DNA of 64,000 nucleotides from Candidatus Latescibacterota bacterium (GTDB lineage Bacteria; Latescibacterota; UBA2968; UBA8231), in contig OY730476.1 of NCBI GenBank assembly GCA_963422735.1, forward strand, positions 1,792,001 to 1,856,000, written 5' to 3'. Positions 16,654 to 16,989 of the stretch are shown piece by piece. The stretch's first letter is position 1. Every line of letters starts with the position of its first letter. Position numbers and translations under genes: made by a program. A model generated the notes under the pieces. The model had not been told where the DNA came from. It ran no database searches and was given only the letters and a program-made list of their open reading frames with translations.

Positions 16654-16694
16654 AAAAAAACCGGGCGCACCCACTAAGGTGGGGTACGCCCGGC
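16654..16694 (-). terminator. Rho-independent terminator of the 16.7-16.95 kb transcript
   Basis: Minus strand gccgggcgtaccccac-ctta-gtgggtgcgcccgg followed by T7. Confidence 0.88.
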
Positions 16695-16953
16695 TGTACT
16701 CTCAGAAGCTATGTCGCCGAGGCGACAATGCTCCTGACCAGGTAGTCGATCACCTGGAGTTGATCAAGTGATCAACCTCCTTGCGGTACAATTACTACTC
16801 AATGGACCACCTCCTTTCGCTTGTGCGCGCCTCATATCCATACTCCAACTCTGCGCGTCGTTGCGGCCAATTACAAAGCCGGGCTGGCTCGCTCGCGTAG
16901 CCTCGAGCCTCAGCGTGGCGGCAACAGAGGCTTTAGGCCCCTGAACCCGTCTT
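16654..16953 (-). ncRNA. Putative stand-alone structured RNA / micro-ORF transcript carrying extended Shine-Dalgarno motifs
   Basis: Bounded by a promoter and a terminator, no long ORF, several perfect hairpins, AAAGGAGGTGGTCCA at 16817-16803 and AAGGAGGT at 16782-16775. Confidence 0.65.
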
Positions 16954-16959
16954 GAGTTT

Positions 16960-16989
16960 AATATGACAAACGCCCAAGAACCATGTCAA
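16960..16989 (-). promoter_or_regulatory. Sigma70-type promoter
   Basis: TTGACA (16989-16984), 18-bp spacer, TGn-CATATT extended -10 (16965-16960), with an A-rich UP-like tract upstream. Confidence 0.75.

Follow-up and report, generated by a model that had tools for sequence, protein, structure and literature searches.

What does a bacterium gain from a small stand-alone RNA that carries a complement of the entire 3' tail of its own 16S rRNA? This question is raised by a locus on the minus strand, at positions 16989-16654, of the 64,000-nucleotide stretch of DNA that we analyzed (hereafter the window; Candidatus Latescibacterota bacterium, assembly GCA_963422735.1, contig OY730476.1, positions 1,792,001 to 1,856,000 of the forward strand). 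An earlier note, made from the letters of the DNA alone, had regarded the locus as a candidate ribosome-capturing RNA. Using a combination of methods (covariance-model searches, comparative alignment, structure prediction and inspection of contigs from RNA libraries), we came to class it as a new RNA family and as a new variant of translation-coupled RNA switches. With moderate confidence, we read it as a stand-alone, translation-coupled and ribosome-engaging RNA switch with no downstream gene. In the following, G000 is the genome of the window, f1-f4 and f8 are family labels, L numbers designate loci in relatives, and X1, X2 and X7 are RNA libraries.

A complement of the 16S rRNA 3' tail

The genome possesses a single 16S gene, the 3' end of which reads ...GGCTGGATCACCTCCTTTCT. 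The RNA segment GAAAGGAGGUGGUCCA, hereafter SD1 (for Shine-Dalgarno, SD) or segment a, pairs with this end over 16 consecutive positions (16818-16803), including one G-U. The earlier note had proposed a 15-nt complement with one G-U wobble; the complementarity holds against the real 16S 3' end of this genome, and the length has to be extended by one position. The two other motifs of that note were also found where it had placed them on the minus strand, and its view that the complement is exceptional proved correct. Among the 10,499 GGAGG sites of the 4,953,052-bp genome, 13 have a complement of at least 13 nt, and SD1 has the longest contiguous one (16 nt), excepting the antisense strand of the 16S gene, which is the only longer complement (18 nt) in the genome. 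A single occurrence of the pattern AAAGGAGGTGRTCCA was found in the window, vs. none in 100 dinucleotide-preserving shuffles. The predicted energy of the SD1:16S-tail duplex is −30.0 kcal/mol, as compared to −15.9 kcal/mol for the ribosome-binding region of the downstream dehydrogenase gene.

SD1 is the best-conserved part of the RNA. Its columns 8-18 (AAGGAGGUGGU) are identical in all 37 sequences of A3, the structure-blind MAFFT alignment of 37 diverse sequences that was used for the helix tests. In the predicted ensemble SD1 is half exposed, with median unpaired probabilities of 0.76 for GAAA, 0.44 for GGAGG and 0.32 for UGGUCC (whole RNA, 0.34). An internal 16S-tail mimic is able to pair with SD1, which according to the predictions is partly sequestered rather than constitutively exposed.

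A mini-ORF conserved in its start, frame and stop

In agreement with the earlier note, the transcript contains no long open reading frame (ORF), the longest one being 25 aa. Directly behind SD1 there is a putative mini-ORF (MSSNCTARRLIT in the window), and a mini-ORF of 9-13 codons stands behind the GGAGG of SD1 in 42 of the 44 homologues compared. One of the two exceptions is truncated by the end of its contig, and the other is a 21-bit match devoid of the motif.

Four features of these 42 sequences are worth considering together. First, the start codon alternates between TTG (22 cases), ATG (11) and GTG (9), at a distance from GGAGG of 7 nt (18 cases), 6 nt (18), 11 nt (five, all in one clade) or 5 nt (one). 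Second, the stop codon occurs at a single aligned site, which immediately follows CACC or the motif corresponding to it, in three forms (TGA, 33; TAA, 7; TAG, 2); in five sequences of A3, UAA or UAG breaks the G64:C87 pair of the b:c helix described below, and the stop is retained. Third, the lengths (12 codons in 29 sequences, 10 in six, 9 in five and 13 in two) differ by changes that preserve the frame, and 3-nt indels were observed in three sequences of the genus. Fourth, the internal GGAGG, hereafter SD2, ends 9 nt (28 sequences), 10 nt (11) or 13 nt (three) ahead of the stop. The alternation of starts at fixed spacing, the frame-keeping lengths and a three-form stop that costs a base pair would not be expected if the ORF were not translated.

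The likeliest of the alternative explanations, although we regard it as improbable, is a non-coding ribosome sponge or store, in which the 16-nt duplex captures 30S subunits and the features of the ORF are incidental or serve the safe release of the ribosome. Extended SD pairing slows the clearance of the start site, which, together with the strong conservation of SD1, the −30 kcal/mol predicted for its duplex and the high depth figures of the RNA-library contigs (see below), is what a sponge would lead one to expect. However, an RNA that is never translated accounts neither for the alternating start codons at fixed spacing, nor for the frame-keeping lengths and the stop at one site, and the predicted partial sequestration of SD1 does not suit a sponge either. 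On the same comparative evidence, the RNA does not appear to be simply non-coding, as the earlier note had assumed, since one probably translated mini-ORF lies directly behind the complement. The micro-peptide operon that the note had offered as an alternative is retained only as regards the presence of one ORF; there is no operon, and the sequence of the peptide is not conserved.

It is doubtful, even more so than a sponge, that the RNA is a small mRNA the functional product of which is the peptide of 9-13 residues. The ORF is conserved behind a very strong SD, the peptides recurrently have an M-S-S start and a G/R-R centre, and the CC2171 RNAs (see below) likewise feature a serine at codon 2, encoded there by four synonymous codons. 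However, the G/R-R centre is forced by SD2, which occurs in two different frames, and the peptides are nearly wholly different across genera (MSSNCTARRLIT, MSSCIPVGGATT, MESTGRSIT and MIATTRRWVV). Within the genus, variation affects seven of the 39 sites of the mini-ORF (3/1/3 over codon positions 1/2/3), with no third-position bias, and five of the eight variant types are nonsynonymous (including C/R, R/G and N/K/T), the other three being synonymous. In most codons none of the three positions varies, a sign of constraint at the RNA level. A start, frame and stop that are kept, combined with a peptide that is not, are the signature of a regulatory ORF, in which the act of translation matters and not its product. 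From these comparisons, we propose that what selection maintains is probably the binding of ribosomes and translation as such (start, frame and stop) rather than the peptide.

The pairing of SD2 with the 16S tail is predicted at −17.9 kcal/mol, and its distance to the last sense codon is 6 nt in the window, near the 7 nt that separate SD1 from the start codon. With the stop codon in the A site, SD2 would lie 6-7 nt from the P-site codon, a spacing equal to that between SD1 and the start, so that the ORF would start and end in the same SD-anchored, initiation-like geometry. No slippery site is kept in the homologues. Two further uses of the stop were considered. Re-initiation could be imagined in the window, where a UUG overlaps the UGA, and in f2, where the UAG is followed by a GUG; it is not supported, as a start codon is lacking at this place in most other genera. 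Sensing specific to release factor 2 through the UGA was rejected in view of the presence of UAA or UAG in nine of the 42 homologues. Separately, an in-frame AUG located upstream (16841) would extend the mini-ORF to 25 aa (16841-16764, minus strand); it is an unlikely start because a 1-nt indel (TATGGA-TATG vs. TATGGATTATG) shifts the frame in many members of the genus.

Mutually exclusive helices

Four segments of the RNA, designated a (SD1), b, c and d (Table 1), can pair in alternative ways. Segment b, which includes the first two bases of the stop codon, can pair either with c or, through GAUCACUU with AGGUGGUC, with SD1. Segment d pairs with CCAGGU (16757-16752) to form a local c:d hairpin, whereas once b:c has formed its CCUG finds a partner in the CAAG/CAGG that precedes SD2. 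The second motif of the earlier note, AAGGAGGUUGAUC, consists of SD2 and strand b, and the third, AGGUGAUC, lies within strand c. These two motifs thus face each other in a 13-bp helix that shows compensatory changes, and are not independent ribosome-binding sites.

The helices were tested on A3. For b:c (13 bp), 94.4% of the cells are paired, vs. 27-55% in controls slid along the alignment, and 7 of the 13 pairs show compensatory changes; of 500 shuffles, none reached the observed value for four of the five measures and one did so for the fifth. For a:b (8 bp; duplex predicted at −9.7 kcal/mol), 97.0% of the cells are pairable (slid controls, 23-62%); variation is confined to the b side in six of the eight pairs, and every b-side change is a transition that keeps the pair. 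For c:d (8 bp), 93.2% of the cells are paired, vs. 21-48% in slid controls, with no significant covariation. Mutually exclusive pairing accounts for the likeness of a to c, and for that of b to d as well as to the 16S tail. The predicted structures thus form a 1:2, 2:3 and 3:4 set of exclusive helices of near-equal stability, with the stop codon in segment 2. The 3:4 helix (c:d) has no U-run, the terminator being a separate hairpin.

Two other helices are predicted. The 5' strand of the closing helix spans codons 5-6 of the mini-ORF, and everything from SD2 through b, c and d to hairpin C lies inside this helix; AUACC/GGUAU or AACC/GGUU stand at the corresponding positions in other genera, as judged from a by-eye reading of the alignment. 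Hairpin C is variable, and is missing from L058, L061, L063 and L069.

These data also bear on the possibility of a base-pairing small RNA (sRNA) or RNA sponge, the SD-like strand of which would target C/U-rich RNA, or segments b and d of which would bind the SDs of mRNAs. We consider it as implausible as a functional peptide. The layout is sRNA-like, with a strong terminator, and GGAGG-type and CACCU-type elements are both present. However, the complement exactly matches the last 16 nt of the 16S rRNA, GAAAG facing CUUUC at its 3' end; the SD-spaced start codon and the in-frame stop are retained; and b and d are mostly paired in either fold, the loops not being conserved.

Table 1. Coordinates of the features of the RNA in the window (numbering of the forward strand).
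Feature	Positions	Strand	Description
Promoter, sigma-70-type	16960..16989	-	promoter scan: 10/12 matches, TG present
5' domain	16819..16953	-	several predicted hairpins (RNAalifold, 23 genus sequences)
SD1 (segment a)	16803..16818	-	GAAAGGAGGUGGUCCA; 16-nt complement of the 16S 3' tail
Mini-ORF (putative)	16764..16802	-	UUG 16802-16800, 12 sense codons MSSNCTARRLIT, UGA 16766-16764; homologous ORF in 42/44 homologues
SD2	16776..16780	-	internal GGAGG; ends 9 nt ahead of the stop
Segment b	16765..16777	-	GGUUGAUCACUUG; mimic of the 16S tail (cf. GGAUCACCU)
Segment c	16744..16756	-	CAGGUGAUCGACU; SD-like copy; pairs with b (13 bp) or, by its 5' part, with d
Segment d	16738..16743	-	ACCUGG (CCACCUGG in most relatives); second tail-like element
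Hairpin C	16702..16737	-	UCAGGAGC...GCUUCUGA; compensatory changes at columns 233:263 and 242:256
Closing helix (predicted)	16695..16699	-	GUACA, pairing with UGUAC 16790-16786; RNAalifold pairs 174-177 with 271-274
Intrinsic terminator	16654..16693	-	CCGGGCG... stem-loop, then U7; fold and conservation

A proposed translation-coupled switch

From the arrangement of SD1, the mini-ORF, SD2 and the exclusive helices, we propose that the RNA switch operates as follows. The 30S subunits would bind SD1, the 16S tail (16 bp) out-competing segment b. The ribosome would then initiate at the mini-ORF, unwind the closing helix and b:c, re-pair with SD2 and terminate inside b. Translation through b would cover this segment, thereby allowing c to flip onto d. 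After the release of the ribosome, b would either close SD1 or return to c. The most likely role of such a switch, which we put forward weakly, is that of a ribosome-responsive RNA titrating, holding or reporting free ribosomes; it is favored because only the ribosome-contacting core is conserved.

Several points weigh against this proposal. The case for the translation of the mini-ORF consists of comparative patterns only, and the 3-nt indels lie in trinucleotide repeats (AGUAGU, GCAGCA), where slippage could have produced them without any coding selection. The a:b and c:d helices are devoid of compensatory changes because one partner of each is nearly invariant. When either fold is forced, b:c is favored over a:b + c:d by a median of 3.4 kcal/mol, and is the more stable of the two in 30 of the 37 sequences, in a predicted comparison that omits the 5' domain. 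The homologues compared have no conserved downstream gene, exposed loop or peptide that could serve as the output of the switch. The genome also possesses a gene for a hibernation factor of the HPF type (PF02482, C1:3495031-3495294), so that the RNA does not replace HPF, an idea that we rejected on this ground. To these points should be added the limits of the contig depths given in the next section.

Distribution and transcripts

In BLAST searches, 22 of 24 further genomes of the genus gave matches of 82-96% identity, whereas the 16 genomes searched outside the genus gave none. A covariance model (R1) was made from an alignment (A1) of 23 sequences of the genus, and a core model (R2) from the 37 diverse sequences of A3. 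R1 matches 75 of the 132 genomes of the class, G000 counted; without G000, it matches 68/75 genomes of f1, 2/3 of f3, 3/22 of f4 and 1/31 of f2. In a sample of the phylum, R2 matches 57/63 genomes of f1, 19/30 of f2, 14/19 of f4 and 2/2 of f3, as well as one of 36 genomes across ten other families. Of 16 weak or secondary R2 matches that were inspected, 13 possess the SD1, mini-ORF, SD2 and stop layout, including matches in f2, in one genome of another class (f8) and in second copies of f1; the other three (L180, L188 and L195) do not. As judged from these sequence searches, the RNA is conserved across one class of Latescibacterota.

A scan of 185,579 species genomes for the exact pattern returned 67 stretches, 44 of which are labeled Latescibacterota or Latescibacteria, 11 Gemmatimonad-type and 12 other. 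R1 was run on 14 of the 67 stretches. It matched L097, L108, L117, L118, L128, L149 and L150, and gave no match in L100, L103, L109, L122, L135, L140 and L154, about the number expected by chance. Among these R1-negative stretches, L100 carries Ms_IGR-5, and L103 and L135 are CC2171-like (see below).

A second, shorter paralogue occurs in several genomes of f1 (L086 and L190-L193, in G086, G087, G102, G117 and G115). This paralogue comprises GAAAGGAG(G), an ORF of 10 codons of the form M-x-x-I-T-W-R-C-x-V, and then a hairpin and a terminator; its UGGAGGUG ends 9-10 nt ahead of a UGA, UAG or UAA stop. The versions of the element found in f3 and f4 resemble this shorter paralogue.

Contigs of the RNA were present in three RNA libraries. 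X1 has an identical 170-nt contig spanning 16772-16941. X2 has a 251-nt contig over 16694-16927 with a depth of 173.7 (6.8-11.1 for contigs of the flanking genes in the same run), and X7, a sponge metatranscriptome, has 220 contigs with a summed depth of about 388,000 over 16798-16854 (9-45 in flanking-gene bins); such depths add up the contributions of several organisms, reflect expression poorly and cannot rank genes. The contigs are consistent with, and not proof of, a very high abundance of the RNA. No RNA-library contig covers 16969-17025, and several contigs of relatives cease to match at 16927. We drew nothing from this gap or this break because contigs cannot define the ends, the strand or the level of an RNA.

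Boundaries and neighbors of the RNA

The minus strand successively reads as a promoter, about 300 nt of transcript (roughly 170-350 nt in relatives) and a G+C-rich hairpin followed by U7. The promoter, TTGACA-18-TGTCATATT, comprises a −35 box TTGACA (16989-16984), an 18-nt spacer and an extended −10 box TGnCATATT (16968-16960), from which transcription is predicted to start near 16953. It is the sole promoter-like site that the promoter scan found in 15500-19500. The match alone is weak evidence because shuffles of this region give a mean of 1.0; TTGAC and the −10 box are retained across the genus alignment, and boxes resembling TTGAC..TATATT stand upstream of the homologues in other families. 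The terminator hairpin is long and G+C-rich (about 16693-16661) in the predicted fold, and its stem and U-run are preserved in nearly all homologues. The strong intrinsic terminator announced by the earlier note is thus recovered by folding, and is absent from the list of a simple terminator scan. That the RNA is a separate small transcript, located downstream of metG and delimited by a promoter and a terminator of its own, agrees with the description in that note. The fold of the whole RNA (−135.7 kcal/mol, z = −5.04) is more stable than those of all 100 shuffles.

The 5' domain is confined to the genus and to a small number of related genera; elsewhere, a short hairpin or a leader takes its place. 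Its (G/A)CCGCC (about 16922-16917) is predicted to pair with the GGUGGU of SD1 (columns 39-44 with 152-157 in RNAalifold on 23 genus sequences), with variation limited to one side.

The upstream gene is metG (tRNA-synt_1g and tRNA_bind domains) and the downstream gene encodes a zinc-binding dehydrogenase. Across genera the neighbor genes vary, and the downstream gene is often convergent, which indicates that the RNA does not serve as the leader of one given gene. Behind the terminator, the dehydrogenase gene possesses a promoter-like box of its own (TTGGTT-18-TGCCATATT, about 16635-16606, minus strand), which shares its extended −10 with the promoter of the RNA, is conserved in the genus alignment and was not scored by the promoter scan; it also has a GAGGAGG SD ahead of its ATG at 16586. 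We dismissed, as by far the least probable alternative, a cis-acting leader or attenuator controlling the dehydrogenase by regulated termination. Such a view is suggested by the co-directional dehydrogenase within about 70 nt in the genus and in L056 of another genus, and by the attenuator-like 1:2, 2:3 and 3:4 layout. Against it stand the gene surroundings, which are not conserved (in most other genera, the gene that follows is unrelated or convergent), the lack of a U-run behind the c:d hairpin, the strength and conservation of the separate terminator, and the promoter-like box of the dehydrogenase itself.

Elsewhere in the window, a full-length transfer-messenger RNA (tmRNA) gene lies at 39251-39609 on the plus strand (RF00023, 202.5 bits).

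Significance

Searches of the literature on ribosome-sponge sRNAs, Latescibacteria small RNAs and Caulobacter small ORFs and sRNAs returned no description of the element. The RNA is among the few recognizable conserved non-coding-like genes in a phylum known solely from metagenomes. Its design is unusual in three respects. It has the longest complement of the 16S tail in the genome, it has a presumably translated ORF, the peptide of which seems unimportant, and its internal anti-SD copies constitute a predicted bistable switch that has nothing downstream to regulate. If the output of the switch were the holding or sensing of ribosomes, the RNA would exert a control of the ribosome pool at the RNA level.

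Comparison with known systems

Several known systems share parts of this design. In the translation attenuation of ermC and cat, and in other switches made of SD, anti-SD and anti-anti-SD segments, a leader ORF and helices hide or free an SD; there, the SD of a downstream resistance gene is freed, whereas here it is the own SD of the leader ORF that would be hidden, and no second conserved ORF was found in the element among the homologues compared. The STAB-SD of the Bacillus cryIIIA mRNA is an SD-like binder of the 16S tail that stabilizes the RNA with no start codon behind it. At the prfB frameshift site, an internal SD located 3 nt from the shift site anchors the elongating ribosome near a stop codon and drives frameshifting. 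Both resemble the present RNA in using the pairing of the 16S tail for purposes beyond ordinary initiation; unlike that of prfB, SD2 lies 9-10 nt from the stop, with no slippery site kept. As in trp-type leader-peptide attenuators, a short ORF, here probably translated, overlaps mutually exclusive 1:2, 2:3 and 3:4 helices. Unlike in these attenuators, 3:4 is not the terminator, no downstream operon is conserved, there are no runs of regulatory codons, and the segments are SD and anti-SD mimics. An attenuator RNA can also act alone, as described in the accessible text on rnTrpL of Sinorhizobium meliloti, a small RNA with a 14-aa ORF (PMC10117765). When compared with dual-function sRNAs, the present RNA keeps its ORF across homologues, with a peptide that is not conserved. 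We rejected 6S RNA, as its fold is rod-like whereas the present one is multi-branched, and RF00013 has no match in the genome at E values up to 1, with a model that detects 6S RNA in just 5 of 14 control genomes.

As regards Rfam, in a scan of the window at gathering scores tmRNA is the sole family above threshold, and the element is below the threshold of every family, in keeping with the earlier note, which could not assign it to a known one. A permissive scan returned sub-threshold matches to CC2171 and Ms_IGR-5, together with chance matches to mir-9195, GRIK4_3p_UTR and folP. CC2171 (RF01867) is the best match (25.3 bits, E 0.0022, vs. a gathering score of 75; a whole-genome search gives the same 25.3), and Ms_IGR-5 (RF02471) scores 9.8 bits in the window (E 9.5, vs. 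a gathering score of 45). In the accessible parts of the papers found, both are sRNAs of unknown function, Ms_IGR-5 appearing in annotation tables only. CC2171 is a stand-alone transcript on Northern blots in Methylorubrum, according to the accessible part of 10.1101/2022.01.24.477521, and is treated as non-coding in the papers searched, the supplementary Ribo-seq lists of which may already show the translation of its ORF.

The likeness to CC2171 resides in the 5' module. The consensus of this family begins with GAAAGGAGGUGAUCCAGUG, and the module GAAAGGAGGUG(A/G)UCCN, followed after 7 nt by AUG or GUG, is present in L103 and in all 13 matches (L167-L179) retrieved from 101 genomes of one class. 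The RNA of the window has this module too (GAAAGGAGGUG(A/G)UCC, a start codon at about 7 nt and a 3' terminator), and both possess a short ORF, ending in any of the three stops, and then a terminator. Codon 2 of the CC2171-type ORFs encodes serine (TCT, TCC, TCA or TCG) in the 13 matches and isoleucine in L103. The two RNAs differ in that the CC2171 ORFs have 22-32 codons, vs. 9-13 in the Latescibacterota element, and in that neither the b/c/d repeat system nor the SD2-to-stop spacing was seen in CC2171. An internal tail-like partner of SD1 in CC2171 RNAs is no more than suggested by a duplex search (z from 0.1 to −3.2 vs. mononucleotide shuffles). As further observations on these RNAs, all 14 of them (L167-L179 and L103) carry the full complement of the 16S tail, and some of them have in common GGAGCAGCCUC (peptide ..EQP..), a potential pairing partner of the SD. 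No Pfam or NCBIfam match was found for the ten of the 14 peptides that were searched.

Similarly to CC2171, Ms_IGR-5 resembles the present RNA at its head. Its consensus begins with GGAAGGAGGUGGUCC, and its Rfam structure pairs GGUGGU with a downstream segment. The one full member compared, L100, has GAAAGGAGGUGAUCCAG, a UUG and a 13-codon ORF ending in ACC-UAG, with a GAGGUG that ends 9 nt ahead of the stop. This member (5582-5670 of L100, plus strand, 59.9 bits) is in a genome of Dehalococcoidia, while Rfam describes the family as actinobacterial; the model matches 2 of 151 genomes in a sample of the phylum of L100.

By the sequences compared, the Latescibacterota RNA shares a head module with CC2171 and Ms_IGR-5, and by score is a member of neither. 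We mention, as a speculation that is rather unlikely to be right, that the three RNAs (from Latescibacterota, Alphaproteobacteria, and Actinobacteria and Chloroflexota) could form one unrecognized class of abundant ribosome-holding RNAs. In such RNAs, full-length pairing with the 16S tail would keep 30S or 70S particles parked on a mini-ORF that does no harm, with SD1 as the anchor at the start and SD2 as the anchor at the stop. Idle ribosomes parked in this way would have their 16S 3' end protected against 3' exonucleases, and the internal mimic of the 16S tail would turn the RNA off when ribosomes are busy. An RNA of this kind would be a counterpart of the protein hibernation factors, or else a gauge of free ribosomes. 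As the head module is common to the orphan sRNAs CC2171 and Ms_IGR-5, the hosts of which are culturable (Caulobacter, Methylorubrum, Streptomyces and Mycobacterium smegmatis), the idea that ribosomes are held or sensed by an RNA is testable.

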